From: an uncultured Acidimicrobiia bacterium
Lineage (GTDB): Bacteria > Actinomycetota > Acidimicrobiia > IMCC26256 > PALSA-555
DNA length: 64,000 nt
Direction: 5' to 3'
Assembly (NCBI GenBank): GCA_963720675.1
Contig: CAVRGH010000007.1
Coordinates: 64,605-128,604 of the forward strand
Position 1 is the stretch's first letter. Each line of letters begins with the position of its first letter. The notes below the pieces were generated by a model. That model saw nothing but the letters and a program-made list of their open reading frames with translations, was not told the DNA's origin and did not search any database. The translations under genes were made by a program, and so were the position numbers. Of the stretch, positions 17,873 to 55,270 are shown piece after piece.

Positions 17873-17968
17873 TCGACGCGCAGGCGCCACCCGCGCGTTC
17901 CTGACACCGGCGTCACCTCCGTGCCAGGATGCGCCCGCACCGGGACCGACGGACGAGCAGGGGGAAAC

Positions 17969-23400: not shown

Positions 23401-23519
23401 TCACACTCCTCCCGAACATGCGCTACCCCGAGCTGGTCGAGCCCGGGGCGGCCCTCGCCGACTCCGCCTACGTGCTCCCGCCCGCCGCGCTGGCCGAGGT
23501 GCCCGCCGCCGGACGCTGA
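20455..23519 (+). pseudogene. three-domain protein (Asp/Asn beta-hydroxylase-like cupin, sulfotransferase, TIGR03032/DUF4915-like); two apparent +1 frame changes (near 21338 and 22067)
   Basis: Frame 1 carries ELHRHVDTNYYWWHHLRVHAPI (AspH/LpxO-type His motif). Frame 2 carries PVFVVSSPRSGSTFLFE plus RLLEKTPKN (sulfotransferase PAPS motifs). Frame 0 carries WCVASYDRLVADP... followed by FHSNHTGSFATLL...HSPRWHDDKLWVLESG, which resembles the TIGR03032 family. No stop codons lie at either junction. Confidence 0.65.
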
Positions 23520-23557
23520 GCGCCCGCCCGGACCGCCCCCCGACCCGGCGGGCCCGC

Positions 23558-23563
23558 TAGGGT
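23558..23563 (+). promoter_or_regulatory. putative -10 box TAGGGT, 54 nt before the beta-helix-1 ATG
   Basis: This is a TAnnnT hexamer in the context gcTAGGGTtcccGGATCG. Very similar boxes lie at the same distance before three other FTG-tail genes. Confidence 0.3.
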
Positions 23564-23616
23564 TCCCGGATCGACCCGGAGCGGAGCCGGGCCACAACAC
23601 CGGGAGCGCCACCCCG

Positions 23617-25160
23617 ATGAGCTCATTCGACGACGTCGCCACGCCTGCAGGACCCCTGCCGAACCGCGCCGCCCGCCGGGCCGCAGGGCGCCGGGGCCGC
23701 AAGCTGGGCGCACTGGGCTCGGGCGCCGTGCTGGCCACCGGCGCGACCGCCGCGGTGCTCGGCCTCACCGCCGGGCCCGCCGTGGGCGCCGCAACGCTCG
23801 TCGTCGACACCACCGACGACGGTCCGGCGACGCCGGCGGACTGCACGACCCCGGTCGCCGGCTCGTGCTCGCTGCGCGACGCGATCGCCGCCGCCGCGGA
23901 CGGCGACACCGTCGACGCGACGGGTATCAGCGGCATCGATCTCGCTGACCGACGACCAGCTCTACACCTGCAGCAACATCACGATCACCGGTCCGGGCGC
24001 GGCGAACCTCACCGTCGACGCCCATCGATGACTCGCGCGTCCTCTACTCCGACTTCGGCGGCAACGGCACGACCACGATCACCGGCATCACCTTCACGAA
24101 CGGCTACGCGACGGGCGACGGCGGCGCGATGCTCTTCTACTGCGACGGCGGCAGCGGCTCGCTCATCCTGAACGACGTCGCCATGACGAACAGCTACGCC
24201 GAGCTCTACGGCGGCGGCCTCGCGGTGATGGCCTGCGAGGACACGTCGATCTCGGGTTCCACCTTCTCCGGCAACCACTCCGGCTCCGGCGAGGGTGGCG
24301 GCATCGTCTTCTACGACTCCAACGACCTGACGGTCACCACCACGTCGGTCGTCGACAACCACGCCGAGCAGGACGACGGCGGTGGGATCGCCTTCTACGG
24401 CTCCAACAACATGACCGTCCGCAACAGCACGATCGCGAACAACACCGCGGGCGAGTTCGGCGGCGGCCTCTACGTCAACGCCTACGGCGACGTCACTATC
24501 GATCAGTCCACGATCTCAGGGAACCAGGCAACCGACAGCGGCGGCGGGATCGGCGTGAACTACGCCGACGGTGACGTGAACATCGTCCAGACCACGATCT
24601 CGGGCAACACCGCGGGCGACCTCGGCGACGGCCTCTACTTCTACCAAAACCTGGAGAACCAGGGCGCGCAGTCCGCCGAGAAGGCCGACCAGAAGCGAAC
24701 CCGCGTCGGCCACAACAAGGAGGGTGCGCCCCAGGAGGCACCCAAGGCCCACGGTCACGCCGGCGCGCAGGACGTCGGTGGCTCGGCCACGCTGACCGGC
24801 ACCATCGTCTCCGGCAACCCCGGGACGGACATCGACACGAACGGCACCCAGGCCGTCACGTCGGTCGCCTCCCTCATCGGCACGACCGGCGCGGGCATCA
24901 ACCTCACCGACGGCGGCGGCACGGTCACCTCGACCACACCGGGCCTCGGCGCCCTGGCGAACAACGGCGGCCCGACCCAGACCCTCGCGCTGCTCCCGGG
25001 CAGCCCGGCGCTCGACGCCGGCCCCGACCCCGTGCCCAGCTACCCCGACAACGGGTTCGACCAGCGCGGTCCCGGCTACCTCCGGGTCGTCAACGGTCGG
25101 GTCGACATCGGGGCGTACGAGGCGCAGGCCGTCGCGATCGTCCCCCGCTTCACCGGCTGA
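23617..25160 (+). pseudogene. secreted parallel beta-helix repeat protein 1 (CSLRDAI / choice-of-anchor-Q-like) ending VPRFTG; two apparent +1 frame changes (near 23950 and 24029)
   Basis: The signal-like N terminus contains RR (NRAARRAAGRRGRKLGALGSGAVLATGATAAVLGL). It carries a CSLRDAI motif, many N-[ST]-x-x-x-N-x-A-x-x-GGG[IL] repeats and the block ALANNGGPTQTLALLPGSPALDAG. Shifts were placed by alignment to the downstream paralogue (ITITGPGAANLTVDAH). Confidence 0.75.
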
Positions 25161-25232
25161 CCCGGGAGCGTTTCGGGCACCCGCACCGGGCGCCCGAGCT
25201 CCCATTCCGACGACAAAACCCGGTCCGGCGGC

Positions 25233-25238
25233 TAGGTT
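25233..25238 (+). promoter_or_regulatory. putative -10 box TAGGTT, 55 nt before the beta-helix-2 ATG
   Basis: The context is gcTAGGTTctgcGGATCG. ACCCG lies 10 nt upstream, as it does in front of beta-helix 1. Confidence 0.3.
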
Positions 25239-25292
25239 CTGCGGATCGTCCCTGGTGCAGAACCGGGGCAGTCCAGCGGGAGCATTACTGCG

Positions 25293-26834
25293 ATGACCGC
25301 GAGCGACTCCTCGGCCCGCCCGAAGGCCCGACCCCCAACCGTGCCGCCCGGCGCGCGGCCGGACACCGCGGCCGCAAGCTCGGAGCGCTGGGCTCGGGCG
25401 CGGTGCTCGCCAGCAGCGCCACCGCCGCGGTGCTCGCGCTCGGCGCGGGTCCGGCCGTCGGCGCGACCACGCTCGTCGTCGACTCGAACGGCGACGGCGG
25501 TGCCACGCCGGCGAACTGCACGACGCCGGTCGCCGGTGCCTGCACGATCCGCGACGCGCTCGCCGCGGCTGCCGACGGCGACACGATCACCTTCGCGCCC
25601 AGCGTCACCGGCGACATCCAGCTCAACGGCGGCGAGCTCGAGATCGACAGTGCGGTCACCATCACCGGACCGGGCGCCGGCGCGCTGGCGATCCACGCCG
25701 ACACCGGGTCACGAGTCTTCAACGAGAACAACGACTTCTCCTCCGGTGACCTGACGATCAGCGGCCTCACCATCACCGACGGTGACAACGGCAACGGTGG
25801 CGGCGGGATGGAGATCGACTGCTACGGAGACCCCGTCAACGTCGTCCTCGACAGCGTCGTGATCACGGGCAACTCGACCAGCAGCAACGGCGGCGGTTTC
25901 TACATGTACGCCTGCGGCGATCTCACCATCCGCAACTCGACCGTCTCGTACAACTACGCGGAGCGTGGCGGCGGCGGCGTGCGCGTGGAGAACTCGCAGA
26001 ACCTCACGATCGAGAATTCGACGTTCGCTCACAACACCAGCGCCTCGGACGGCGGTGCGCTGTACCTCACCGGCGCCGAAGGTGTCGTGACGATCACGAA
26101 CTCGACCTTCAACAACAACGAGGCGGACGACGGTGCGGGGCTCGAGATCTACGAGAACCAGGACGCCCAGAGCATCACGATCGCGAACTCCACGGTCACC
26201 GGGAACGTCGGGGGCGGTGACGGTGGGGGGCTCTACCTCTACGGGAGCGACGCAGCGATCCTCAGCTCGACGATCGTGGGCAACTCGTCCGACGACAACA
26301 CCGGCGGGGTCCTCGTCACCAGCGCGGACGTGACCGTCACCGCTTCGCTCCTCGGTGGCAACACCGACGTCGGCGGGAGCGGCGCCGCCGCGACCGACAT
26401 CGGCACCGGCATCCGCGAAATGTCGCTCGGAGCGAGCAAGCACACCGGACGGGGCGGTGGCGGGGGCAAGGACAGCGGCCCGGTCGCCAAGGCCGGCGGC
26501 GTCGGCGCCCAAGCCGCCGGCTCCGTCACGATCACGTCCAATGTCATCAACGGCATCGTCGACCCGAACCTCACCACCACCGACGGCGGCGGGAACCACC
26601 TCGGCGTCGCTCCGGGCGTCGGCGCACTCGCGAACAACGGCGGCGCCGACGCAGACCCTGGCGCTCCTGCCCGGCTCGGGCGCGATCGACGCCGCCGGTG
26701 CAGCCGTGCCGAGCTTCCCGGGGAACGACTTCGACCAACGCGGGGCCGGGTACGCCCGCCTCGTCAACGGCGCACTCGACGCCGGTGCGTTCGAGGTCCA
26801 GGCGGTCGCACTGGTTCCCCGCTTCACCGGCTGA
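25293..26834 (+). pseudogene. secreted parallel beta-helix repeat protein 2 ending VPRFTG; apparent -1 change near 25323 and +1 change near 26645
   Basis: ATG 25293 gives MTASDSSARP. The next frame gives GPTPNRAARRAAGHRGRKLGALGSGAVLASSATAAVLAL, collinear with paralogue 1. A long GGG repeat body follows. The tail PTQTLALLPGSGAIDAAG...VQAVALVPRFTG lies in track ORF 26355..26834. Confidence 0.75.
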
Positions 26835-26848
26835 CGCGCGCACACGCC

Positions 26849-27096
26849 ATGGCGTCCGACCCGCGACCCGGACGGCAAGATCGTCCAGCTCGCGGTGTTC
26901 GAGGGCTTCATCGAGGCCGAAGCCGCAGTCGCACAGCTCGACGGCGGCAGGCATCAAGGCCATGCGCGGCGCCGACGACGGGAACTCGCTCCCGAACCTC
27001 GCGTCGTCCGGTGGGTTCCCGGTGCTGGTGTTCGAGGACGACCTCGATGCCGCACGCGCGGTGCTCGCGACGGAAAGCTCAGAGCCCGCTGACTGA
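26849..27096 (+). pseudogene. DUF2007-like small protein; two apparent +1 frame changes (near 26866 and 26943)
   Basis: The segments MASDPR / PDGKIVQLAVFEGFIEAEAAVAQLD / AAGIKAMRGADDGNSLPNLASSGGFPVLVFEDDLDAARAVL read as one DUF2007-type fold only across three frames. The 3' end overlaps convergent ccdA by 18 nt. Confidence 0.5.
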
Positions 27097-27784
27097 GGGC
27101 GTGAACCGGGCGAGGTACGAGGTCAGGTGCCCGTACGTCCCGGTCGCGAGCAGCAGACCGAGGATCACGAGCAGCACGCCCGCAACCCGTTCGATGACGG
27201 GCCCCGCCCGGCGCAGCCAGGACGCGAAGCCCGGGGAACGACGCGAGCCCGAGCGCGGCGAGCAGGAACGGCACCCCGATCCCGAAGGCGTAGGCGAGCA
27301 GCAGCAGCGCCCCCCGCCACGCCTGGCCCTGCTGCGCGGCGACGGTGAGCGCCGCGGCGAGGAGCGGCCCGACGCACGGGCTCCACGCCGCGCCGAACGC
27401 GACGCCGACGACGAACGGGCGCGCCCGCCCCCCGCCCGACGGCAGGCGCTGGACGAGGCGCCGCTCACGTGAGAACGGACCGCGCAGCACACCGAGCAGC
27501 GCGAGCCCCATCACGAAGATGATCACTCCGCCGACCCGCTCGATCACGTCCTGGACGTCGCGCAAGGACGAGCCGACGAACCCCGCGGCCGCGCCGAGCC
27601 CGGCGAACACGGCCGCGAAGCCGAGGATGAAGACGATCGTCGCGGGCACCGCGCGCGCCGGATCGCGCGCGTCCGCCGCCTCGCCGGCGATGATCCCCAG
27701 GTACGCGGGCAAGAGGGGCACGATGCACGGCGCCAGGAACGACGCCACGCCGGCACCGAACAGCGCCAGCAGCTCCGGGAGCAC
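27079..27784 (-). pseudogene. ccdA: cytochrome c biogenesis / thiol-disulfide transporter CcdA family; apparent +1 frame change near 27229
   Basis: It starts at GTG 27784. Both conserved Cys motifs are present (FLAPCIVPLLPAYL, AAWSPCVGPLL). The last two TM helices (FASWLRRAGPVIERVAGVLLVILGLLLATG...) are in the adjacent frame (track ORF 27079..27492). Confidence 0.75.
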
Positions 27785-45905: not shown

Positions 45906-47119
45906 CCAGCATCCTCAGCGGTACCCGTGTGCTCGAAGTCGCAGCCTGGACGTTCGTCCCCTCCGCCGGCGCCATCCTCGCCGACTGGGGCGCCGACGTC
46001 CTGAAGATCGAGCACCCGGCCACGGGTGACCCGCAGCGGGGCCTGTCCACCATGGGGGTGTCGCTCGGCGACCCCACCGCGGTGAACTTCATGATCGAGA
46101 TCCCGAACCGCGGGAAGCGCAGCGTCGCGATCGACCTCAAGACCGACGACGGACGCGAGCTGCTGTATCGACTCGCGGAGACCGCCGACGTCTTCCTCAC
46201 GAACTCGCTGCCCGACATGCGCGAGTCGTTGCAGTTCGACGTCGAGCACATCCGGGCCCGGAACCCGAACATCATCTACGCGCGGGGGCACGGGCAGGGC
46301 GCGAAGGGGCCCGACGCTCGCAAAGGGGGGTACGACGGTGCGTCCTACTGGTCGCGCGGTGGCGTCGGCGACACGCTGCGGGCCCCCGACACCGACGAAC
46401 CGGCGGGGATGCGCCCGGCGATCGGCGACGTCATGGGCGGGCTCACCCTCGCCGGTGGGATCGCGGCCGCACTGTTCCACCGCGAGAAGACCGGGGAGGC
46501 GACCGTCGTCGACACGTCGCTGATGGGCACCGCGATGTGGCAGCTCCAGCCCGACATCGTCATGACCCGGCTCAACGGGCTCGACGAGATCGTGCGCTTC
46601 AAGAACAACGCGATCGCGAACCCACTCGTCGGCAACTACCGCACCCAGGACGGGCGCTGGGTCTTCCTGAACATGATGCAGGCCGACAAGTTCTGGGCCG
46701 ACTTCTGCACCCACCTCGGGCGCACCGACCTCATCGACGACGAGCGCTTCCGCGATGCCACGGTGCGCGCCGAGCACCGCGACGCGTGTGTCGAGGAGAT
46801 CCGGAGCACGTTCGCGTCGCGACCACTCGCCGAGTGGCGCGAGGCGCTCGCGACGATGCAGGGCGTGTGGGCGCCGGTGCAGCGCGTCCCGGAGCTGGCG
46901 ACCGACGAGCAGGTCGTCGCCAACGGGTACCTCCGGCCCGTCACCGACACCGACGGCAACGAGTTCGAGCTCGTCGGCGCCCCGGTGCAGTTCGACGAGC
47001 AACCCCACGACCTGCGGGGCGCGCCGGCCCACGGCGAGCACACCGACGAGGTGCTCGCCGAGCTCGGGTACACGTGGGACGAGATCGTGGCGTTCAAGGT
47101 CTCCGGCGCCGTCCTCTAG
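45902..47119 (+). CDS. CaiB/BaiF-type (family III) CoA-transferase
   Basis: GTG 45902 overlaps the upstream stop (GTGA) and is in frame in track ORF 44702..47119. Motifs LSGTRVLEVAAWTFVPSAG, NRGKRSVAIDLK and a mid-domain Asp region are present. Confidence 0.85.
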   Translation: MTSILSGTRVLEVAAWTFVPSAGAILADWGADVLKIEHPATGDPQRGLSTMGVSLGDPTAVNFMIEIPNRGKRSVAIDLKTDDGRELLYRLAETADVFLTNSLPDMRESLQFDVEHIRARNPNIIYARGHGQGAKGPDARKGGYDGASYWSRGGVGDTLRAPDTDEPAGMRPAIGDVMGGLTLAGGIAAALFHREKTGEATVVDTSLMGTAMWQLQPDIVMTRLNGLDEIVRFKNNAIANPLVGNYRTQDGRWVFLNMMQADKFWADFCTHLGRTDLIDDERFRDATVRAEHRDACVEEIRSTFASRPLAEWREALATMQGVWAPVQRVPELATDEQVVANGYLRPVTDTDGNEFELVGAPVQFDEQPHDLRGAPAHGEHTDEVLAELGYTWDEIVAFKVSGAVL

Positions 47120-47235: not shown

Positions 47236-48079
47236 GTGAAGGTCCGCCCGCTCGCACCGGCGCTCGGCGTCGAGGTCACCGAGCTTCGATGCCGGGACGC
47301 GGCTCGATCCGGCGGACGTCGATGCGCTCCTCCGCGCGTACGACGAGCACCACCTGCTGGTCTTCCGAGACCAGGACCTCACCGACGACGAGCAGGAGCG
47401 CTTCGCGGCCTGGTTCGGCCCGCCGATCGACGAGATGGGCAATGGTGAGACGTCCGGCTTCATCTCGAACGTGCAGCCCGATGCGGCAGGTGACGGTCCG
47501 CTTCCGTTCCACTCCGATCTCACGTTCACCCCGCAACCGGTGATGGGGATCACCCTGTACGCGATGGAGCTGCCACCCGGCGGCACGTCGACCTGGTTCG
47601 CGAACGCGACCGCCGCCGCCGCGGACCTCCCCACCGACCTGCGGGCACGCGTCGAGGGGCGCGAGGTGACGCACTCGCTCGCCACCTTCGTGACCGGGCG
47701 GGACGACAGCAAGTCGCGCGAGCACGACCTCGGCCCGACGGTGCCTCGCGCGACGCATCCGGTGCTGCGACCCAACCCGCGTACCGGCATGGAGATCCTG
47801 TTCGTCACCGACCTCCACGCCGAGCGGATCCATCAGCCTTCGGGTGCCGACCTCCCCGACGACGACGCCGCCGCGCTCCTCGAAGAGCTGCTCGCGCATC
47901 TCTACCGGCCCGAGCACCTCTACGAGCACCAGTGGAAGCTGCACGACCTGCTCATCTGGGACAACCAGGCGATCCAACACAAGCGCGAGGACGTGAGCGA
48001 CGCGAAGCCACGCACCTTCCGCCGCAACTCGCTGAACACCGCCCGCTGGATCGAGCTCGTCCCCATGCCCGGCGCCTAG
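47236..48079 (+). pseudogene. TauD/TfdA-family Fe(II)/2-oxoglutarate dioxygenase; apparent +1 frame change near 47287
   Basis: GTG 47236 (GGGGGA RBS) gives MKVRPLAPALGVEVTEL. The next frame gives DAGTRLDPADVDALLRAYDEHHLLVFRDQDL...PFHSDLTF (HxD iron motif) and runs to TAG 48077-48079. Confidence 0.75.
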
Positions 48080-48165: not shown

Positions 48166-49125
48166 TCAGTAGGCGTCGAGGATGTCGACGACGAAGACGA
48201 GGGTGTCGGTGCCCTTGATCTTCGGGGGCGAGCCCGCAGTGCCGTAGCCCTTGTCGGGCGGCACGACCAGCAACACCTGCGACCCGACGGTCTGGCCGAC
48301 GAGGCCCTCGTCCCACCCGGCGATGACTTGTTGGGTCCCGATCCCGAAGTCGATCGGCTGCCCGCGGTCCCACGACGAGTCGAACTTCTTCCCCGTGTCC
48401 CAGATCACGCCGGTGTACTGGACGGTGACGGTCTGCCCGGCCTCCACCACCGCACCGGTGCCGGTGATCAGCGGCTGCACGACGAGCTGCGTCGGCGCGT
48501 CGGTCTTCGGCACCTTGATGGCGGGCTTCCCGTTCTTGGCGAGCGTGACCGTCGGGAGACCCGCGACGGGCGGGACCGCAGTACCGGTCGCCTTGGCGAT
48601 CGGGACCCGCACGCCGGTCACATCGACGACGAAGAGGATCGTGTCGCCCTTCTTCGCGGGGCCACCTTGCTGCTCGAGCTTCGCTGCGATCCCCTCGCTC
48701 GGAGCGATCGCGACCAACGTGCGGCTACCGACGGTCGCACCGATGAGTCCCTGGACCAGCCCGGTGACGGCCTTGCTCTTGTCGAGGGTGATCGTCGCCG
48801 GCGCTTTGTCGAACGACGTCTCGATCTGCTCCCCCGTGCGCCCGTCGACGGCGAGGTAGTTGAAGGTGATCTTGTCGCCCTTGCCGAGCTTGTCACCCGT
48901 TCCCTCGAGGACCTGCTTGCTGGTGCTCTTCTTCACCTTGAACGGCTGGTCGAACTCGAGCGTCGGCGGCTGACCGACCACTCCGGTGACGGTGACCTTC
49001 GACAACGGATCGGGCGCGGCGCCCGCCGGCACCATCGTTCCGACCGACACGATCGAGATCGCGATCATCACCAGGACGGCACCGAGACGCTTCACGCTGA
49101 GCCTTTCGAACGGGGAAGTGCGCAC
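48166..49125 (-). CDS. secreted FKBP-type peptidyl-prolyl isomerase (two FKBP-like modules)
   Basis: This is a 319-aa ORF with a signal or anchor (VKRLGAVLVMIAISIVSVGTMVPAGAA). The C-terminal canonical FKBP block is VQYTGVIWDTGKKFDSSWDRGQPIDFGIGTQQVIAGWDEGLVG. Confidence 0.85.
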   Translation of the reverse strand: MRTSPFERLSVKRLGAVLVMIAISIVSVGTMVPAGAAPDPLSKVTVTGVVGQPPTLEFDQPFKVKKSTSKQVLEGTGDKLGKGDKITFNYLAVDGRTGEQIETSFDKAPATITLDKSKAVTGLVQGLIGATVGSRTLVAIAPSEGIAAKLEQQGGPAKKGDTILFVVDVTGVRVPIAKATGTAVPPVAGLPTVTLAKNGKPAIKVPKTDAPTQLVVQPLITGTGAVVEAGQTVTVQYTGVIWDTGKKFDSSWDRGQPIDFGIGTQQVIAGWDEGLVGQTVGSQVLLVVPPDKGYGTAGSPPKIKGTDTLVFVVDILDAY

Positions 49126-49232: not shown

Positions 49233-50021
49233 TCAGTCTTCGAGCGGCAACCCGGGAGCGCGCAGCCCACCCCCGGCATAGACCGTCTCCCCCGAGATGT
49301 AGCTCGACGCCCCGGACGCGAAGAAGACGATGGGCCACGCGATCTCCTCGGGGTCGCCGGCGCGTCCGGTCGCGCTCGCGGCACCACCGACGGCATCGGG
49401 ATCCCGACCGATCTTCGCCATGGCGCGCACGAAGCCCTCGCTCTTGATCGCGCCCACACGTACACAGTTCACGCGGATCCCGCTCGGGGTCAGCGCGGCA
49501 GCGAAGCTCTTCGTGAGGTTCTCGACGCCCGCCTTCGCTGCGCCGTAGGGCGCAACGTCGGGGAGACCCTGCGCAGCTGCACCCGACGACACGTTCACGA
49601 TCGCACCCGAGCCCCGCTCCTGCATGTGCGGCGCCACCCGGTGCGACAAGACGAAGACGCTGCGCAGGTTCAGATCGAGCATGTTCTGGTAGTAGTCGGG
49701 TGTCCACGCCTCGAAGGGGTGGTTGTGGCTCCCACCGGCGTTGTTCACGAGCACATCGATGCGGCCCATCTCGGCGAGTGCCGCGTCGATCAGCGCCTCG
49801 CACTCCTCGACGACGCGCACGTCGGTCTGCGCCACCATCGCCTTCCGGCCGAACCCTTGCACCTCAGCCGCGACCGACTCGAGGTTCTCGACCTTGCGAC
49901 TCGCGAGGACGACGTCGGCACCGAGCTCGGCGAAGAGCAGGGCCGTCGCCCGCCCGATGCCGGTCCCCCCGCCGGTGATCACCGCGACCCGTCCGGTCTG
50001 GTCGAAGACGTCTGCCAGCAT
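49233..50021 (-). CDS. short-chain dehydrogenase/reductase (SDR)
   Basis: This is an intact 262-aa ORF with ITGGGTGIG, NNAG and YGAAKAG motifs. It lies 57 nt downstream of, and co-oriented with, the heliorhodopsin gene. Confidence 0.85.
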   Translation of the reverse strand: MLADVFDQTGRVAVITGGGTGIGRATALLFAELGADVVLASRKVENLESVAAEVQGFGRKAMVAQTDVRVVEECEALIDAALAEMGRIDVLVNNAGGSHNHPFEAWTPDYYQNMLDLNLRSVFVLSHRVAPHMQERGSGAIVNVSSGAAAQGLPDVAPYGAAKAGVENLTKSFAAALTPSGIRVNCVRVGAIKSEGFVRAMAKIGRDPDAVGGAASATGRAGDPEEIAWPIVFFASGASSYISGETVYAGGGLRAPGLPLED

Positions 50022-50078
50022 CGTGCTCCCCCTCGGCTCGTGCCGGATCCTGGCACGGCGAGCAGCCAGCGCGCCCGC

Positions 50079-50843
50079 TCAGGTCCGCAACACGTTTGCG
50101 AAGATCAGCCAGGCGAGCAGGGACTTCGCGGTGAGGCTCAACAGGATGTAGGTGGTCTCACCGGCGACGTAGTCACGCCAACGTCCGACCTGGCGATACT
50201 GCAACACCATGTTCACCGCGAAGCTGAAGAAGAGGACGAGCTCGACGATCGTGATCGCGTAGACGAACCCGGGTGGTGCAGCGGGTCCCGCGAGGAGGTA
50301 GATCGAGATCGCGATCCACGGGACGACCCCAGCGAACGAGCCGAACCAGAACGCGCTCCAGTCGGTGTTCCCCGGCTCCTGCTGCCGTTCCATGAGCAGG
50401 CCGAACAGGATCATCGCGGTGTTCACGCCGAAGATGGCAATCAGCGCGGCGATGTCGCGGATCCCGACGAACATCGCGATGAGCACGATCATGATCGACG
50501 CACTCACGGAGTACTCGATCCACCGTGCGTAGTTGGTGCGCCGGTCGAGGCACGACTCGTACCAACGATGGACGCGCGGTGCGGCGACGACGAGGTGGTC
50601 GATCGCGGCGAGGGCGAGGAAGAGCGCCACGGCCGGGCCGATGGCGATCGTGAAGAGCTCCTCGGCCGGCGCCGCACCCAACGCCTTCACCGGGTCGTTG
50701 CGCAGGTACGAAGCGAAGACCGGCAGCGCGAGTCCGTTGCTGAGCGCCAACATCGCGAGCGCTTCGACGCCCAGGATCGCCCCGACCACCAGGTTGAACA
50801 CGCGGAGCTTTCGGTAGGTCGCGACACGGTCGGTGTCCGGCAT
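50079..50843 (-). CDS. heliorhodopsin
   Basis: ATG 50843 (AGGAGG RBS) lies inside track ORF 50079..50978. The 254-aa 7-TM protein has blocks matching heliorhodopsin 48C12 as I recall it. These include RWIEYSVSASIMIVLIA (counter-ion Glu), FWFGSFAGVVPWI and PGFVYAI...FFSFAVNMVLQY. The block ILLSLTAKSLLAW carries the retinal Schiff-base Lys. Confidence 0.85.
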   Translation of the reverse strand: MPDTDRVATYRKLRVFNLVVGAILGVEALAMLALSNGLALPVFASYLRNDPVKALGAAPAEELFTIAIGPAVALFLALAAIDHLVVAAPRVHRWYESCLDRRTNYARWIEYSVSASIMIVLIAMFVGIRDIAALIAIFGVNTAMILFGLLMERQQEPGNTDWSAFWFGSFAGVVPWIAISIYLLAGPAAPPGFVYAITIVELVLFFSFAVNMVLQYRQVGRWRDYVAGETTYILLSLTAKSLLAWLIFANVLRT

Positions 50844-50916
50844 GGTGCCTCCTGGGTCAGGAACCGCTCCTGACGGTCTACCCCGCCCTCCCCCGCCCGA
50901 CCCGGCCCCGCCCCGC

Positions 50917-50953
50917 TCGGAAATGGTCGGAAATGGTCGGGAATGGTCGGGAC
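50917..50953. promoter_or_regulatory. 10-bp direct repeat x3.5 (TCGGAAATGG TCGGAAATGG TCGGGAATGG TCGGGAC) in the heliorhodopsin/pirin divergent region
   Basis: This is read directly in the sequence. The period is one helical turn. It lies 74-110 nt upstream of the heliorhodopsin ATG and 56-92 nt upstream of the pirin ATG. Confidence 0.5.
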
Positions 50954-50961
50954 ACCCACGC

Positions 50962-50980
50962 AGTTGTTGCAGGTACAACT
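50962..50980. promoter_or_regulatory. palindrome AGTTGT-N7-ACAACT in the same divergent region
   Basis: This is a perfect 6-bp inverted repeat, relatively AT-rich, 29 nt upstream of pirin ATG 51009. Confidence 0.4.
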
Positions 50981-51008
50981 ACTGTGCGAACGTCCGAGGA
51001 GCACCGCC

Positions 51009-51965
51009 ATGCCTGCGATCACGGTCGACGACCCCACCACCCTGCCCCGGATCGGTCCCGCCGACGGGGTGATCCGCCCCGTCACCTCGATCACCCACGC
51101 CGTGCGCGAGCTCGAAGGCGCAGGCTTCCCCGTGTGGCGCGGCTTCCACGGGCTCGGCTTCGCCGACATCGACCCCTTCCTCCTCCTCGACGAGATGGGG
51201 CCGCTCGAGTGGGCACCCGACACCGCGAAGGGCGCGCCGTGGCATCCGCACCGCGGGTTCGAGACGGTCACGTACGTGCTCGACGGCGCAGTCGAGCACC
51301 ACGACACCGAAGGTGGCGGCGGCACCATCGGCGAGGGCGACACCCAGTGGATGACTGCCGGCCGAGGCCTGCTCCACGACGAGCTGCCGACGCAGGAGCT
51401 GTTCCGCAACGGCGGCCGCTCCCATGGTGTGCAGCTGTGGGTGAACCTCCCTGCCGCGGACAAGATGACCGAGCCGCGCTACCAGGCGATCGAGGGTGGC
51501 GACCTCACGCTGCTCGCGACCGACGACGGCGACGGCCTCGTCCGTCTGATCGCGGGACGACTCGGTGCCCACACCGGCCCGGGCGACACCCACACCCCCA
51601 TCACGCTCGCCCACGCGACGCTGCCCCCGGGCACCGAGCTCCGGACACCGTGGGATCCCGCCTACTCGGCGATGGCATACGTGCTGAGCGGGACCGGCAC
51701 CGTCGGCGTCGAGGCCCGCGAGATCCGTGAGCACCAGCTCGCCGCCTTCGGGACGGGCGACACCGTCGTCGTGCGCGCCACGCCCGACGCATCCGAACCC
51801 CTCGACGTCCTGCTCCTCGGCGGACAACCGCTGCGCGAGCCGGTCGCGCAGTACGGCCCGTTCGTCATGAACACCGAGGCCGAGATCCACGAGGCGATCC
51901 GGGACTTCCAGGAGGGGAAGATGGGCCGGCTCCCCGCGGACGACGGCGACGTGCGACGGGGCTGA
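51009..51965 (+). CDS. pirin family protein
   Basis: ATG 51009 (GAGGAG RBS) lies inside track ORF 50943..51965. It carries the bicupin metal motif HPHRGFETVTYVLDG plus the typical C-terminal YGPFVMNT. Confidence 0.9.
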   Translation: MPAITVDDPTTLPRIGPADGVIRPVTSITHAVRELEGAGFPVWRGFHGLGFADIDPFLLLDEMGPLEWAPDTAKGAPWHPHRGFETVTYVLDGAVEHHDTEGGGGTIGEGDTQWMTAGRGLLHDELPTQELFRNGGRSHGVQLWVNLPAADKMTEPRYQAIEGGDLTLLATDDGDGLVRLIAGRLGAHTGPGDTHTPITLAHATLPPGTELRTPWDPAYSAMAYVLSGTGTVGVEAREIREHQLAAFGTGDTVVVRATPDASEPLDVLLLGGQPLREPVAQYGPFVMNTEAEIHEAIRDFQEGKMGRLPADDGDVRRG

Positions 51966-52032: not shown

Positions 52033-52802
52033 ATGACGAATCGCATCCGTTCCCAGAAGCCTACGAAGCTCCTCACCGCGCTCCTCGTGGCCGCGGCCGC
52101 GGCTCGCGGTCGACACCCGCAGTCGCGCCCGGCGCAGCCGGGGCGACCGCGGCCGGGCGCTACGACCCCGTCATCCGCCCCGCCGACTTCGGCGGGCCGA
52201 TCGACAATCCCTATCTGCCGCTGCTCCCCGGCACCCGCAGCGTCTACGCGGAGGACGGCCCGGACGGGACCCAGCAGATCGTCGTCGAGGTCACGCCGGT
52301 CACGAAGCAGATCCTCGGCATCACGTGTGTCGTGGTGCGCGACACCGCCACGCTCGACGGTGTGGTCGTCGAGGACACCGCCGACTGGTACGCGCAGGAC
52401 CGTCACGGCAACGTCTGGTACTTCGGTGAAGCCACGACGGAGTACGAGGACGGGCAACCGGCGAGCACGGTCGGATCCTGGGAGGCCGGGGTCGACGGTG
52501 CGAAGGCCGGGATCGTGATGCTGGCGAAGCCGGCGGTCGGGCGGGGCTACCGACAGGAGTTCCTCCGGGGCGTCGCCGAAGACCGGGCGCGCGTCCTGCA
52601 GGTCGACGCGACGGCCACCGTCCCGGTCGGTCGGTTCGACCAGGTGGTGCGCACGCGAGACTTCACCGCGCTCGACCCGAAGCGCGTCGAGGAGAAGTAC
52701 TACGCCCGCGGCATCGGATCGGTGCTCGAGGTCCTGGTCAAGGGAGGGAGCGAGCGCGCGGAGCTCGTCGAGTTCACTGCACCCCCACCAACGCAGCCTT
52801 GA
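52033..52802 (+). pseudogene. secreted conserved hypothetical protein; apparent -1 frame change near 52100
   Basis: ATG 52033 gives the signal-like MTNRIRSQKPTKLLTALLVAAAAA. Coding-like sequence (AAGRYDPVIRPADFGGPIDNPYLPLLPGTRSVYAEDGPDGTQQIVVEV...) runs in another frame. That frame has no start codon before 52332. Confidence 0.55.
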
Positions 52803-52812
52803 CGGTCGACGC

Positions 52813-54090
52813 CTACTCCTGGGCGCCCGACGCCACCTGAGTCCCGCAGCCGGAGATCTCGATGCCGGGCTCCGCGCTCGGGGTGACCGACCCGACGTCG
52901 TCGCCGGCGAAGCGAGCAGCCATCCAGTCGATCATGTCGGGCGAGGACACCGAGATCACACCGGCGTGGGACGCGCCGGGGTAGATCCACCGCTCGAGCC
53001 CCTGGCCGATGCCACACAGGTGGTCGGCGAGGAGCTTCGTCGAGGCCACCGGGATCTGCTCGTCCTCCCCACCCTGGATGATGAGCAGTGGCGTGGCGGT
53101 CGGTTGGCTGAACGACTGCGGGTCGTTCTCGGTGAACAGCTTCGCCCAGGCCGGCGACGCGAACGGGTCGCCGGTCGTGAGGGTCGCGATGTCGGCGGTC
53201 CCGTACTTGTCGGACAGATCGCCCGAGCAGCCCTTGTCGAGATCCGCGGTCGCGGTGATCCCCGCCGGCGTGAGCACCTGGTCGAGGGGTGCGACGGTGT
53301 CGCCGTAGGCCTCGTTGAGCCCTCCGGCGGCCATCAAGAGGTAGTAGCGGAACGGACTCGTCTTCAAGAAGTTGTACAAGAGGTTGAACTGCGACGGCGG
53401 CGCGCCCGCGACCACGCCCTGGATCTTCAGGTCGGGTGCGTAGTCCTCGGCGAAGTGGTGCGCGAACATCGCGGAGTGCCCACCTTGTGAGTGACCCCAG
53501 ACCAGGTACTGCTCGCTCGCGTGTGCCGACTTCAGCTCACGCGCCGCTCGGACGCTGTCGATCGTGTCGCGCGCGGCCGACTCTCCGGCGATGTACGGGA
53601 GGATGCCGGGCGTGCCCTCACCCCGGTAGTCCGTCGACGTGATGATCCAGCCCTGGTCCAGGAGGAGGTTCGCCAGCTTCGCGTTGCCGGCGGGCTTCAG
53701 GGAGGGCGCGCACTGGTCCGCCATGCCGTTCGTGCCGTGGGCCCACGCGACCACCGGGAACCCGCCCTTGGGTGCCGAGCCGTCGGGCACGGCGATCGTG
53801 CCGGTCACCGCGACCGGCTTGTCGCCGACGAGGGTGCTCGAGAGGTACATGACGCGGTACACGGTCCCGTGCACCGCGGGGGCCTTCACCTTCTGCGACT
53901 TCAGCAGTGTGCCGGGCTCGCCCTGCAGCGGCTGGGGCACCGAGTAGAACGCGGGGAGCCCGTCGGGGGCGGGCAGCACCTTGGCTGCACTCGTGCTCGC
54001 GCCGGCCCCGGCGGCCAGGCCGCTCACGACGAGTCCCAGGGCGCCAAGGAGCGCGATCGCACTCCGACGACGGTACGGACGCTGGTGCAT
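52813..54090 (-). CDS. secretory lipase (LIP-family alpha/beta hydrolase)
   Basis: ATG 54090 lies inside track ORF 52813..54594. A signal peptide (MHQRPYRRRSAIALLGALGLVVSGLAAGAGA), the nucleophile elbow WGHSQGG and the overall LIP-like layout are present. Confidence 0.75.
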   Translation of the reverse strand: MHQRPYRRRSAIALLGALGLVVSGLAAGAGASTSAAKVLPAPDGLPAFYSVPQPLQGEPGTLLKSQKVKAPAVHGTVYRVMYLSSTLVGDKPVAVTGTIAVPDGSAPKGGFPVVAWAHGTNGMADQCAPSLKPAGNAKLANLLLDQGWIITSTDYRGEGTPGILPYIAGESAARDTIDSVRAARELKSAHASEQYLVWGHSQGGHSAMFAHHFAEDYAPDLKIQGVVAGAPPSQFNLLYNFLKTSPFRYYLLMAAGGLNEAYGDTVAPLDQVLTPAGITATADLDKGCSGDLSDKYGTADIATLTTGDPFASPAWAKLFTENDPQSFSQPTATPLLIIQGGEDEQIPVASTKLLADHLCGIGQGLERWIYPGASHAGVISVSSPDMIDWMAARFAGDDVGSVTPSAEPGIEISGCGTQVASGAQE

Positions 54091-54292
54091 GCGGACTCCC
54101 CCCGGCCGCAGGACGGGAGCTCCCGGCCTGCCGGCGCCCAGCGTAGGCCCCAGCGTCGCACCCCCGTCCGCGCCGGAGCCCTTGTTATCCTCGGCCGGAA
54201 TCCGAGCGGTGCGGAGCCACTCGACGAGGCGGAGGGGTCGAGCGGTCTTGGGTCGAGGGTTGGGTCGATGGTCGAGCCGTCCGATTCGAGGG

Positions 54293-55270
54293 GTGCGGAT
54301 CGCCGCTGCCGCGTTCGCCGCGATCGCGCTCGTCGCGCTGACCGCGGGCGTCGGCCTCGCGGCACCGGGTGACCCCTCGTCCGAGCCGACCGAGCCCCCC
54401 ACCGGCGCGGCGCCGGCTTCCGAGCCGGCTCCGAGCGCCACGGACGTCACGGCGCAGGCCGGCCCGGTGGCGTACACCATCATCTTCAGCGACGGCTGCA
54501 AGCTCGCGACCGTCGGCCTCACCGACGGCGTCGTCACCGCGGTGGGCGCGAACTTCGAGTCGCTCGCGTGCGTCGCCGATCTGACCTTCGGCAACGACGG
54601 CAGCCTCTACGGGATCATCGGTGGCGACCCGCCCCTGCGTGCGCATCTCGTGCGCTTCGACCTCACGACCGGTGCACCGAGCGACCTGGGTCCGATCACC
54701 GGGAGCTTCACCACCAGCCAGACGTTCGGCACGAGCGACGTCGGCATCGCGACCGGGAACGGTGGGCGCATCCTCGTGACGATGGCCACCGACGAGACCC
54801 CCGCGTGCGGGTCGGTGCTGTGTGTCTACGACGTCGACCCGGCATCACTCGCCGGCACCCTCGTCGGGCCGCTCGGCCCGCCGGCGGGCCCGTTCGACGA
54901 CAAGCCGACGCTCACGCTCACCGCCGACTGCGGCACGACCGCGTGGACCGTCGTCTCGCGCAACGAGACCGTGCAACAGCTGTTCCTCACGACGATCAGC
55001 CAGTCGAGCGGCACCGCCGCCGACGGGCCGGAGATCGGGCTGACGTCGGGCGCGAACCCCTACGGCGTCGAGCTCGACCGGGGCACGCGCATCCTCTATC
55101 TCCTCGCCAGCGACGTGCAGAGCCCCGAAGCCCTGTACACGCTGGACCCGGCCAGCGGCGCGACCACGCCGATCGCCCCGATCTCCGGCGACTCGCAGAC
55201 GATCGAGCGCCTCGCGATCCCCGGCTCCTGCCCGGTGGCCATCGCCGCCGAACCCACCTTCACCGGCTGA
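54293..55270 (+). CDS. secreted Cys-rich D-x-x-T-G repeat protein P3 ending EPTFTG (intact)
   Basis: GTG 54293 lies inside track ORF 53981..55270 and gives (M)RIAAAAFAAIALVALTAGVGLAAPG. Repeats include LVRFDLTTGAPSDLGP, VYDVDPASLAGTLVGP and LYTLDPASGATTPIAP. It is a paralogue of P1/P2. Confidence 0.75.
   Translation: MRIAAAAFAAIALVALTAGVGLAAPGDPSSEPTEPPTGAAPASEPAPSATDVTAQAGPVAYTIIFSDGCKLATVGLTDGVVTAVGANFESLACVADLTFGNDGSLYGIIGGDPPLRAHLVRFDLTTGAPSDLGPITGSFTTSQTFGTSDVGIATGNGGRILVTMATDETPACGSVLCVYDVDPASLAGTLVGPLGPPAGPFDDKPTLTLTADCGTTAWTVVSRNETVQQLFLTTISQSSGTAADGPEIGLTSGANPYGVELDRGTRILYLLASDVQSPEALYTLDPASGATTPIAPISGDSQTIERLAIPGSCPVAIAAEPTFTG

Follow-up and report, generated by a model that had tools for sequence, protein, structure and literature searches.

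An intact heliorhodopsin (HeR) gene, under purifying selection and of the actinobacterial 48C12-like kind, lies on a 64-kb stretch of DNA (referred to here as the window) from a high-GC (70% GC) soil-type Acidimicrobiia bacterium. We consider it highly probable that the product, which we call window HeR, is a 48C12-like, non-transporting light sensor with no partner fixed by gene order. The protein is already known: the exact sequence is present in public collections, where its cluster-mates are labelled "Heliorhodopsin". More than 5,000 HeR homologues exist, and those closest to window HeR come from soil Acidimicrobiia metagenome-assembled genomes. The main reference for comparison is 48C12, a freshwater actinobacterial fosmid HeR (PDB 6su3, 6su4, and 6uh3) belonging to Kovalev subfamily 1, or Chazan group A.

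An intact gene of the 48C12-like kind

A first-pass annotation of the window had recognised the 254-amino-acid, seven-transmembrane product as a heliorhodopsin, and profile, sequence, and structure searches all placed HeRs on top. Pfam family PF18761 (Heliorhodopsin) matched with 303.2 bits against a cut-off of 26.7 (E 1.5e-90) over profile positions 1 to 242 of 242, and the NCBIfam HeR equivalog NF038020 scored 291.5 bits (cut-off, 100). A sequence search of the PDB matched 48C12 (E 8e-62). An AlphaFold model (pLDDT 82, pTM 0.80) had seven helices and the HeR-typical A-B beta-hairpin (strands 39 to 44 and 61 to 67). When this model was searched with Foldseek, the ten best structures were all HeRs (TM score, 0.87 to 0.90; rmsd, 2.0 to 2.7 Å; E about 1e-18). 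Hence, the top matches were heliorhodopsins rather than type-1 rhodopsins or unrelated seven-transmembrane proteins.

The open reading frame is uninterrupted (Table 1). Its longest possible form reaches a TTG at position 50978 (299 amino acids). However, the ATG at 50843 is preceded, at a distance of 4 nt, by an AGGAGG sequence, homologues start at the same MPD/MPE residues as this ATG, and public assemblies call exactly the same 254-amino-acid protein. These observations support the ATG as the start, and we rejected the N-terminal extension. The dN/dS ratio relative to close relatives was 0.08 to 0.12.

Most of the family motifs quoted in the first-pass annotation were found as described: RWIEYS at residues 107 to 112, FWFGSFAGVVPWI at 165 to 177, PGFVY at 191 to 195, and SLTAKSLLAW at 236 to 245. 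The N-terminal pattern was only approximate; three residues, not two, separate FN from the G in window HeR and in 48C12 alike. Multiple alignment placed the lysine and the glutamate as anticipated, with K240 (the predicted retinal Schiff-base lysine, on helix G) and E110 of RWIEYS (the predicted counter-ion, on helix C) each invariant in 121 of 121 close homologues. H83, N104, R107, W108, Y111, S236, and W245 were, together with these two, conserved and nearly invariant in the 121 sequences, and N17, S114, Y95, and E229 were invariant in a 20-sequence alignment.

Window HeR and 48C12 share 49.8% identity over 239 aligned residues, their length class, seven transmembrane helices, and the A-B beta-hairpin, and the model superimposes on 6su3 with a TM score of 0.89 and an rmsd of 2.0 Å. 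The 48C12 residues that are kept include K241 (K240 in window HeR), E107 (E110), H80 (H83), N16, N101, R104, W105, Y108, S111, E149, S237, and W246, as well as the lateral fenestration. The differences are H23 to L24, Q26 to E27, S76 to A79, F79 to D82, S112 to A115, and Q213 to M212, an E-F loop that is 4 residues shorter, and the host, as window HeR comes from a soil-type, high-GC member of the Acidimicrobiia and 48C12 from a freshwater actinobacterium.

Segmentation by hydropathy alone gave six transmembrane segments, with helices C and D overlapping and helix G missed, and helix boundaries were therefore taken from the AlphaFold model. With these boundaries, 11 lysine and arginine residues fall on the side of the N terminus and 4 on the other, a bias also described for 48C12 (PMC7049168). 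Inverted topology, with a cytoplasmic N terminus, is a prediction from this model.

Window HeR has three extra carboxylates, E27, D82, and E201, in helices A, B, and F, respectively. They would suit an ion transporter, either a proton transporter like the viral V2HeR3, a HeR scaffold able to conduct protons (PMC9448325), or a type-1 pump that had been misassigned. However, E27 and E201 correspond to positions in known polar clusters on the surface of 48C12 (Q26/S242/W246 and Q247/S201, respectively; PMC7049168) and not in a pore. Type-1 rhodopsin structures matched the model with TM scores of at best 0.55 to 0.58 and 12 to 13% identity (Foldseek E about 1e-4), and the Pfam scan of window HeR gave no match to Bac_rhodopsin (PF01036) at an E value of 0.01 or lower. 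None of the HeRs from bacteria and archaea that have been assayed to date transports ions, and the actinomycete protein BagHR, which does not pump, is among them (preprint 10.1101/2024.05.16.594530; PMC7049168). Ion transport by window HeR is thus extremely improbable.

Table 1. Features of the heliorhodopsin locus (positions are those of the window)
Feature	Position	Strand	Remarks
Short-chain dehydrogenase/reductase (SDR), 262 aa	49233..50021	minus	adh_short E 8e-56; co-oriented with and downstream of HeR
HeR-SDR spacer, 57 nt	50022..50078	minus	Without recognisable terminator
Heliorhodopsin (HeR) CDS	50079..50843	minus	254 aa including start; stop codon 50079-50081; profiles, PDB match, model, dN/dS
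AAG codon, K240	50124..50126	minus	Predicted retinal Schiff-base lysine; K241 of 48C12 by alignment
GAG codon, E110	50514..50516	minus	Predicted Schiff-base counter-ion; E107 of 48C12 by alignment
HeR/pirin divergent intergenic region, 165 bp	50844..51008		Repeats read in sequence
Shine-Dalgarno-like AGGAGG	50848..50853	minus	Upstream of ATG 50843; read directly in sequence
CCCCG run	50881-50916		HeR/pirin intergenic region
10-bp tandem repeat, 3.4 copies	50917-50950		HeR/pirin intergenic region; expansion unique to window
Inverted repeat GTTGT-N7-ACAAC	50963-50979		HeR/pirin intergenic region; also in L003
Pirin-family bicupin, 318 aa	51009..51965	plus	Pirin and Pirin_C domains; divergent from HeR
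Strain-variable segment with ORF, between pirin and lipase gene	52036..52800	plus	ORF without Pfam/NCBIfam match
Secretory-lipase-type alpha/beta hydrolase	52813..54594	minus	PF03583 (LIP); maximal ORF, true start probably later

Gene order around the heliorhodopsin gene

The neighbours had been placed correctly in the first-pass annotation: a co-oriented SDR gene begins exactly 57 nt downstream of HeR, and a pirin gene is divergent. The starts of HeR and the pirin gene are 165 nt apart, and one source names the pirin quercetin 2,3-dioxygenase. The SDR scored under every NCBIfam equivalog cut-off, and we therefore regard it as a generic SDR. Its best PDB relatives were 7-alpha-HSDH and FabG-like enzymes. 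The mammalian retinal reductase DHRS4 was also among its PDB matches (E 1.6e-36), but classical SDRs in general show such likeness, and 7-alpha-HSDH and FabG are more similar to the SDR than DHRS4 is; we rejected assignment of the SDR as a retinal reductase on this basis.

The HeR-SDR layout, with both genes on one strand and no terminator in the gap, fits the operon-group architecture of Cho et al. A scan for sigma-70 promoters and intrinsic terminators between 47.9 and 52.9 kb returned nothing, a result that carries little weight for promoters because the host is a 70% GC actinobacterium and that argues only weakly against a terminator in the spacer. The fold energy of the spacer did not differ from that of shuffled sequence (z = -0.05), and the spacer has no U-tract. 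To judge from the sequence, co-transcription of HeR and the SDR is possible. Cho et al. 2024 (PMC11109279) list "SDR family oxidoreductase" among ten groups of genes that often neighbour HeR in operons. Hence, the earlier statement that neither gene had been proposed as a partner holds for pirin, which is not mentioned in that paper or in Bulzu et al. 2021, but not for the SDR.

The pair was retained in the related loci L001/L002, L003, and L082. Since no terminator was found between the genes and the pair is kept in these four close contigs, there may be a lineage-specific link between HeR and the SDR. The two genes might then form a functional operon in which light-activated HeR binds the SDR and modulates its activity, by analogy with HeR modulation of glutamine synthetase, photolyase, and OmrDE, or in which the SDR interconverts retinol and retinal. 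However, the four contigs are so closely related that plain synteny suffices to explain the pair. The SDR was kept next to HeR only where HeR identity was at least 88%, and it was already lost in L004, whose HeR is 87% identical. No homologue of the window SDR adjoined HeR in 77 loci with HeRs at most 78% identical, the few matches being 32 to 38% identical and 2 to 9 kb away. Moreover, SDRs, which are among the commonest gene families, were not enriched near HeR (2.0% of genes within three genes of HeR versus 1.4% farther away in 76 gene-called loci; p = 0.61). Given also the generic character of the SDR, we assign the operon reading a low probability. It is very unlikely that, in this Acidimicrobiia lineage, HeR is co-transcribed with the SDR and controls it by light, or that the SDR supplies or recycles retinal. 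If true, this would give the HeR-SDR class, which was proposed from bioinformatics, its first experimental example, in a soil L23/E26 subclade whose Schiff-base cavity chemistry would be unlike that of 48C12.

The pirin gene was not constant either. It was present in L003, L004, and L082 but absent from L001/L002, whose HeR is 94% identical, and it was found in none of the loci with HeRs at most 78% identical. In L001, the closest relative, the gene directly upstream of HeR and on its strand is a 429-amino-acid LIP gene, whose end is about 112 nt from the HeR start (116 nt if the distance is taken from where the tblastn match ends). L082 carries a different gene, 3Beta_HSD/epimerase-like, at the equivalent of 52036 to 52800, although its HeR is identical and the flanks are 98 to 99.5% identical. 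We concluded that pirin belongs to a variable insertion, a strain-variable islet.

These observations bear on whether HeR acts in a light-triggered oxidative-stress response, within the framework of Bulzu et al. 2021, with the divergent pirin and nearby redox genes as outputs. Pirin shares with HeR a 165-bp control region that contains repeats, the window also encodes a YaaA peroxide-stress protein, an F420H2-dependent quinone reductase, and a glyoxalase, and both Bulzu et al. 2021 and Chazan et al. (preprint 10.1101/2021.02.16.431466) report enrichment of redox and oxidative-stress genes around HeRs. However, the same stress families are also found near type-1 pumps (Chazan et al.), so the association is not specific to HeRs, and Pfam searches found no two-component system genes near HeR in the window. 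Together with the inconstancy of pirin, this makes the stress reading doubtful, and we think it improbable.

Beyond near-identical relatives, the HeR-SDR-pirin arrangement, whose conservation the first-pass annotation had proposed as a check, was not conserved, and it therefore gives no support for a functional link. None of the window's neighbours was found near HeR in the 77 loci with HeRs at most 78% identical. The neighbours of HeR were different in nearly all of 76 related loci. A search of these loci for a conserved HeR partner yielded only clade-local blocks (DUF6512 with SOUL, an SDR and SRPBCC, and, in Micromonospora, a pentapeptide-repeat gene), all of them absent from the window. 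The HeRs of Geodermatophilaceae likewise have diverse neighbourhoods with no consistent pattern and no fixed partner (preprint 10.1101/2024.05.16.594530). We concluded that HeR-SDR-pirin is local synteny, that the SDR and pirin are not conserved partners, and that the three genes should not be taken as a functional module.

Partners have been proven for other HeRs, namely, glutamine synthetase for AbHeR, photolyase for TfHeR, and the OmrDE ABC transporter for OcHeR. The 64-kb window contains none of these partner genes; Pfam searches found no glutamine synthetase, NAD+ synthetase, photolyase, MDR-type/OmrDE ABC exporter, DegV, DUF2177, or DUF2238. Scans for Rfam families and tRNA genes, run over the full window, gave no matches.

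Retinal supply and the lateral fenestration

As stated in the first-pass annotation, the window contains no crt or blh genes. Pfam scans of its approximately 60 open reading frames found no SQS_PSY, phytoene desaturase, lycopene cyclase, BCD/Blh, RPE65, or type-1 rhodopsin. A blh gene hidden among the open reading frames that lack a Pfam match was also rejected; each has at most 2 transmembrane-like segments, and so none encodes a blh-like polytopic membrane protein. The lack of retinal-synthesis genes nearby follows the published norm for the family; according to Chazan et al. (preprint 10.1101/2021.02.16.431466), HeRs seldom have blh in their vicinity.

Window HeR retains F165, S169, G172, and A209, together with an aromatic residue at F205/F206, and the proposed carotenoid-binding fenestration motif is thus intact. 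Because this motif is retained, the retinal presumably comes from scavenging or from synthesis encoded elsewhere in the genome. Almost all HeRs carry the motif, which therefore does not discriminate between functions; we know of no energy-conserving output of bacterial HeRs. Both points count against window HeR being mainly a two-chromophore light harvester that takes an exogenous xanthophyll through the lateral fenestration, in line with a 2025 preprint (Kornilov et al.) that describes HeRs as carotenoid-assisted light harvesters rather than pure sensors. That proposal comes from one preprint and draws on docking and structures. As defined in preprint 10.1101/2025.11.27.691015, the motif comprises aromatics at 162 and 206, small residues at 166 and 210, and Gly169, and 91% of HeRs carry it. 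Hence, despite the intact motif, we regard a harvesting role as unlikely and retain a light sensor as the preferred reading.

Proposed mechanism and the H23L/Q26E variant

What is proposed here for chromophore, colour, photocycle, and output comes from homologues whose identity to window HeR does not exceed about 50%. By homology, window HeR would be a seven-helix membrane protein with a cytoplasmic N terminus. It would carry all-trans retinal in a protonated Schiff-base linkage to K240, and E110 would be the only counter-ion. As in 48C12, TaHeR, BagHR, and others, light would isomerise the retinal. The Schiff-base proton would then pass transiently to a cytoplasmic polar cavity formed by H83, N17, N104, Y111, R107, and E229 before returning, in a photocycle that should last seconds and involve no net ion transport. 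The long-lived state would most likely be the light signal. Its relay would be through direct contact between cytoplasmic loops rich in arginine (R217, R221, and R223 in the F-G loop) and one or more soluble or membrane partners. The F-G loop is positively charged both in window HeR and in AbHeR, where the residues are K216, K217, and K220 (PMC9529153). HeRs bind and regulate glutamine synthetase through positive residues of the third intracellular loop (PMC9529153), and they regulate an ABC transporter (PMC11109279). In effect, window HeR would stand alone as a sensor; at most, it would share a transcript with the generic SDR, which is unrelated.

L24 and E27 of window HeR stand where 48C12 has H23 and Q26, and this pair of substitutions is clade-wide. 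Of the two conserved histidines that line the Schiff-base cavity, only the second is kept, H80 of 48C12 being H83 in window HeR. We aligned 97 full-length family representatives with MAFFT at fast settings; columns near a one-residue indel at F206/N207 of 48C12 were unreliable and were not used. Position 23 was histidine in 64 of the 97 sequences, with tyrosine in 8, leucine in 7, and phenylalanine in 6. HULAa30F3, a proven HeR from Chloroflexi, lacks both histidines (preprint 10.1101/2021.02.16.431466). The histidine pair is thus not universal, and the leucine at position 23 marks window HeR as a variant; it is not a ground for exclusion from the HeRs.

Because H23 is missing, the photochemistry of window HeR may differ from that of 48C12. 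Replacement of the conserved histidines of HeRs lowers accumulation of the M intermediate, and in HULAa30F3, which is red-shifted (562 nm), low M accumulation has been linked to the leucine that it, like window HeR, has at the first conserved histidine (preprint 10.1101/2021.02.16.431466). By analogy, the L24/E27 pair probably lowers M accumulation relative to 48C12. Compared with HULAa30F3 as described, however, window HeR keeps H83 and adds E27. The HeRs of Geodermatophilaceae, such as BagHR, resemble window HeR in coming from terrestrial high-GC actinomycetes and in the S76A substitution but differ in that they keep both H23 and H80 (preprint 10.1101/2024.05.16.594530).

The window gene adds one uncharacterised soil-Acidimicrobiia HeR to a family of thousands, and its import lies mostly in correct annotation. 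The H23L/Q26E pair is the only specialist lead. Because the pair is also found in cultured Micromonospora species, the role of the histidine pair could be tested in a natural variant.

Identity of the heliorhodopsin gene

The sole Pfam match of the 254-amino-acid product was Heliorhodopsin (PF18761; 303 bits versus a gathering score of 26.7, with the whole profile covered); Bac_rhodopsin gave no Pfam match. The product scored 291.5 bits against the NCBIfam equivalog "heliorhodopsin HeR" (cutoff, 100), and the NCBI pipeline would therefore name the gene automatically. The best matches among PDB sequences were 48C12, an actinobacterial heliorhodopsin (HeR) (E = 8e-62; 49.8% identity over 239 aligned positions), and a Thermoplasmatales HeR (E = 1.7e-56). 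Modeling with AlphaFold2 from 20 homologues (pLDDT, 82; pTM, 0.80) gave seven helices and the A-B beta-hairpin typical of HeRs. With Foldseek, the best ten PDB matches were all HeRs (TM, 0.87 to 0.90; rmsd, 2.0 to 2.7 Å); type-1 rhodopsins, which the first-pass annotation had set against its own heliorhodopsin call, ranked after them (TM, ~0.55; 12 to 13% identity). All of these comparisons point to HeR, as that annotation had proposed.

The longest form of the open reading frame (ORF) begins at TTG 50978 and the 254-amino-acid form at ATG 50843; both end at 50079. We conclude that ATG 50843 is the real start and rule out the TTG, because AGGAGG lies 4 nt upstream of the ATG, homologues start at the same MPD/MPE residues, and gene callers produced exactly this form in public assemblies. 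The start and length first proposed therefore stand. Most of the motifs quoted for the protein were also found, with the N-terminal pattern matching only approximately. G+C content is ~70% from end to end of the window, and that of the three codon positions of the HeR ORF (0.61/0.44/0.90) is as in a genuine gene of this genome. The dN/dS ratio was 0.08 to 0.24 against the four to five closest orthologues, which indicates purifying selection on the gene.

More than 5,381 proteins in a 90%-clustered collection matched HeR at an E value of ≤1e-10 (a lower bound, from 8,000 candidates scored), as did 3,083 clusters at ≤1e-3 with 50% clustering. NCBI/ENA already contains the identical protein, on a 282.5-kb contig, and JGI labels members of its 90% cluster "Heliorhodopsin." The nearest genomes are metagenome-assembled genomes (MAGs) of uncultured Acidimicrobiia (94, 88, and 87% identity), followed by other Actinomycetota, including many cultured Micromonospora (65 to 69%). 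Acidimicrobiia HeRs appear in earlier reports. We concluded that this HeR is an uncharacterized addition to a well-known, automatically annotated family, and that the finding is correct and ordinary.

No conserved genomic partner of HeR

Pfam and NCBIfam annotation covered ~60 ORFs of the window.

Features of the window, with coordinates as window positions
Feature	Position	Strand	Annotation source
Glutaminase fused to STAS and cyclic-nucleotide-binding domains	2197-4002		
CoA-transferase family III ORF	17921-19771		
CoA-transferase family III ORF, overlapping, different frame	19449-20387		
Poorly characterized cluster	20455-27472		
CoA-transferase	45929-47119	+	Pfam/NCBIfam
TauD dioxygenase	47240-48079	+	Pfam/NCBIfam
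FKBP isomerase	48166-49125	-	Pfam/NCBIfam
Short-chain dehydrogenase/reductase (SDR)	49233-50021	-	Pfam/NCBIfam
HeR	50079-50843	-	Pfam/NCBIfam
CCCCG run	50881-50916		
10-bp repeat	50917-50950		
Inverted repeat	50963-50979		
Pirin	51009-51965	+	Pfam/NCBIfam
ORF without family match	about 52036-52802	+	Pfam/NCBIfam
LIP-type alpha/beta hydrolase	52813-54594	-	Pfam/NCBIfam

Among these ORFs, the 64-kb window held no carotenoid- or retinal-synthesis gene, no type-1 rhodopsin gene, and, SDR and hydrolase classes aside, no known or proposed HeR partner: it lacked glutamine synthetase, NAD+ synthetase, photolyase, MDR ABC exporter, MerR, TerC, DegV, DUF2177, and DUF2238. Window ORFs without a family match are not polytopic membrane proteins, making a hidden blh unlikely, and the initial statement that crt/blh genes are missing from the window was borne out. 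Chazan et al. (10.1101/2021.02.16.431466) found blh to be rare among HeR neighbors and to co-occur with HeR mainly where another rhodopsin is present; the lack of blh near HeR is the published norm. Rfam and tRNA scans of the window gave no matches. The glutaminase fusion lies ~46 kb from HeR, and nothing suggested a connection between them.

HeRs have been shown to bind and regulate, in a light-dependent manner, glutamine synthetase (PMC9529153), photolyase (PMC9769723), and an ABC exporter (PMC11109279). Cho et al. 2024 (PMC11109279) split HeRs into ten groups by operon neighbor, an SDR oxidoreductase group among them; the claim that SDR is not a proposed partner was therefore incorrect. Neither Cho et al. 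2024 nor Bulzu et al. 2021 mentions pirin. A functional link between HeR and the window SDR is conceivable but improbable. The spacer has no terminator-like feature and folds no more stably than shuffled sequence, so, as far as the sequence goes, cotranscription is possible. However, the SDR is a generic classical one (below every NCBIfam equivalog cutoff; nearest solved relatives, 7-alpha-HSDH and FabG-type enzymes), SDRs are not enriched near HeR (2.0% of genes within three genes versus 1.4% farther away; Fisher P = 0.61), and the SDR is missing from a close relative, L004.

The order HeR-SDR-pirin, suggested as worth checking for conservation, is not conserved. The closest MAG (HeR 94% identical) has LIP-HeR-SDR-FKBP on one strand without pirin, and both 94% loci, L001 and L002, lack pirin and the gene between pirin and the lipase. 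The order at L003 (88%) is LIP-pirin-HeR-SDR. At L004 (87%), pirin is present, an Rce1-like gene directly follows HeR, and the SDR-FKBP-TauD-CoA-transferase block is absent. None of the window neighbors was kept near HeR at the 77 loci with HeRs ≤78% identical. When all called neighbors were clustered, almost every related locus had its own gene context, with recurring blocks only clade-local: several MAGs had DUF6512 together with SOUL, an SDR, and SRPBCC, and Micromonospora had a pentapeptide-repeat protein. [quoted passage not shown] (10.1101/2024.05.16.594530). We concluded that the neighborhood angle fails on comparison with relatives.

The metagenome yielded one more contig, L082, that carries an identical HeR with flanks 98 to 99.5% identical to the window and has a 3-beta-HSD/epimerase-like gene (970-1801) exactly where window 52036-52800 has the ORF without a family match. 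The lipase-HeR stretch is therefore a small strain-variable islet, pirin included, and the pirin-lipase interval is a hot spot of strain-level gene content. HeR may be linked to pirin and oxidative stress, and redox and oxidative-stress genes do occur near HeRs (Bulzu et al. 2021; Chazan et al.). However, pirin sits in this islet and is absent beside a 94%-identical HeR, and the same redox/stress families flank type-1 pumps as well (Chazan et al.).

The most recurrent neighbor seen in this HeR clade was the membrane protein DUF6512, directly beside HeR in 7 of 76 related loci (L021, L054, L032, L037, L039, L048, and L049) in two orientations, often accompanied by SOUL (heme-binding), SDR, and SRPBCC proteins. 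It had no Pfam match among the window ORFs scanned.

Intergenic repeats and other features of the window

The divergent HeR/pirin intergenic region contains 3.4 copies of a 10-bp unit, TCGGAAATGG (plus strand), directly beside ~7 copies of CCCCG. The relatives L002 and L003 have just one copy, a degenerate CATTCCCG-like motif; hence, only this strain has the expansion, which might alter a shared HeR/pirin promoter or operator. An inverted repeat, GTTGT-N7-ACAAC, lies 30 to 46 nt upstream of the pirin start and is conserved and slightly longer in the same place at L003 (GGTTGT-N7-ACAACC), a candidate operator of the pirin gene.

The second CoA-transferase family III ORF matches profile positions 84-366 only, and the codon-position G+C signal changes frame near 19150-19300. 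Possible readings of window 17921-20387 are a gene with a frameshift, an indel in the assembly, and tandem paralogues whose ORF overhang is long. The poorly characterized cluster encodes an Asp/Arg beta-hydroxylase-like protein, a sulfotransferase, and DUF4915 (402 bits), followed by two right-handed beta-helix proteins; it may act at the cell surface or in peptide modification.

Retinal-site residues and a clade signature

K240 and E110 of the window HeR align with K241 and E107 of 48C12, as first proposed, and neither residue varies among 121 close sequences. By homology, retinal would be bound at K240 with E110 as the counter-ion. By the model helices, the N-terminal side carries 11 Lys and Arg residues and the opposite side 4, a bias that fits the N-in topology of 48C12, which homologues suggest here too. 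Homologues would also predict a slow photocycle without transport, with the proton parked in the cytoplasmic cavity, and signaling through contact of Arg-rich cytoplasmic loops with some partner. HeR may instead transport ions, as one viral HeR does with protons (PMC9448325), but terrestrial actinomycete HeRs showed no pumping (Tarlachkov et al.). It may also carry a carotenoid antenna: a 2025 preprint (10.1101/2025.11.27.691015) suggests such an antenna, of exogenous origin, for most HeRs, and the proposed fenestration/carotenoid-site residues are present (aromatic ones at 162 and 206, small ones at 166 and 210, plus G169). Each of these readings, like the SDR and pirin/stress links, faces specific contrary evidence.

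Two related HeRs are altered at these sites. The match at L039 (10001-10705) stops at residue 240, with N replacing the Schiff-base lysine, and L014 has G in place of R107 and S in place of E110. Both genes may be decaying; Geodermatophilaceae are known to include frameshifted HeRs (10.1101/2024.05.16.594530).

The structurally important residues listed by Kovalev et al. (PMC7049168) are S237, E107, S111, S76, H23, H80, N101, Y108, N16, E230, R104, Y92, E149, Q216, Y226, W105, and Q213. All are kept except S76 (A79), H23 (L24), and Q213 (M212). Red-shifted Geodermatophilaceae HeRs share S76A (10.1101/2024.05.16.594530), and Met at 213 is a frequent variant (PMC7049168). Positions 213 and A240 of 48C12 are known color-tuning sites (PMC7807009); the A240 counterpart is Ala. 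Loss of H23 is accompanied by Q26 to E. Position 23 is L in 115, and position 26 is E in 114, of the 121 closest sequences; nearly all genome loci above ~67% HeR identity are L/E, and those further off are H/Q, with a few L/Q intermediates. Across the wider family (97 full-length representatives), position 23 was H in 64 sequences, Y in 8, L in 7, and F in 6; on these counts, L is a minority state, yet not unique. [quoted passage not shown] The H23L/Q26E clade signature is a modest lead for photochemists.
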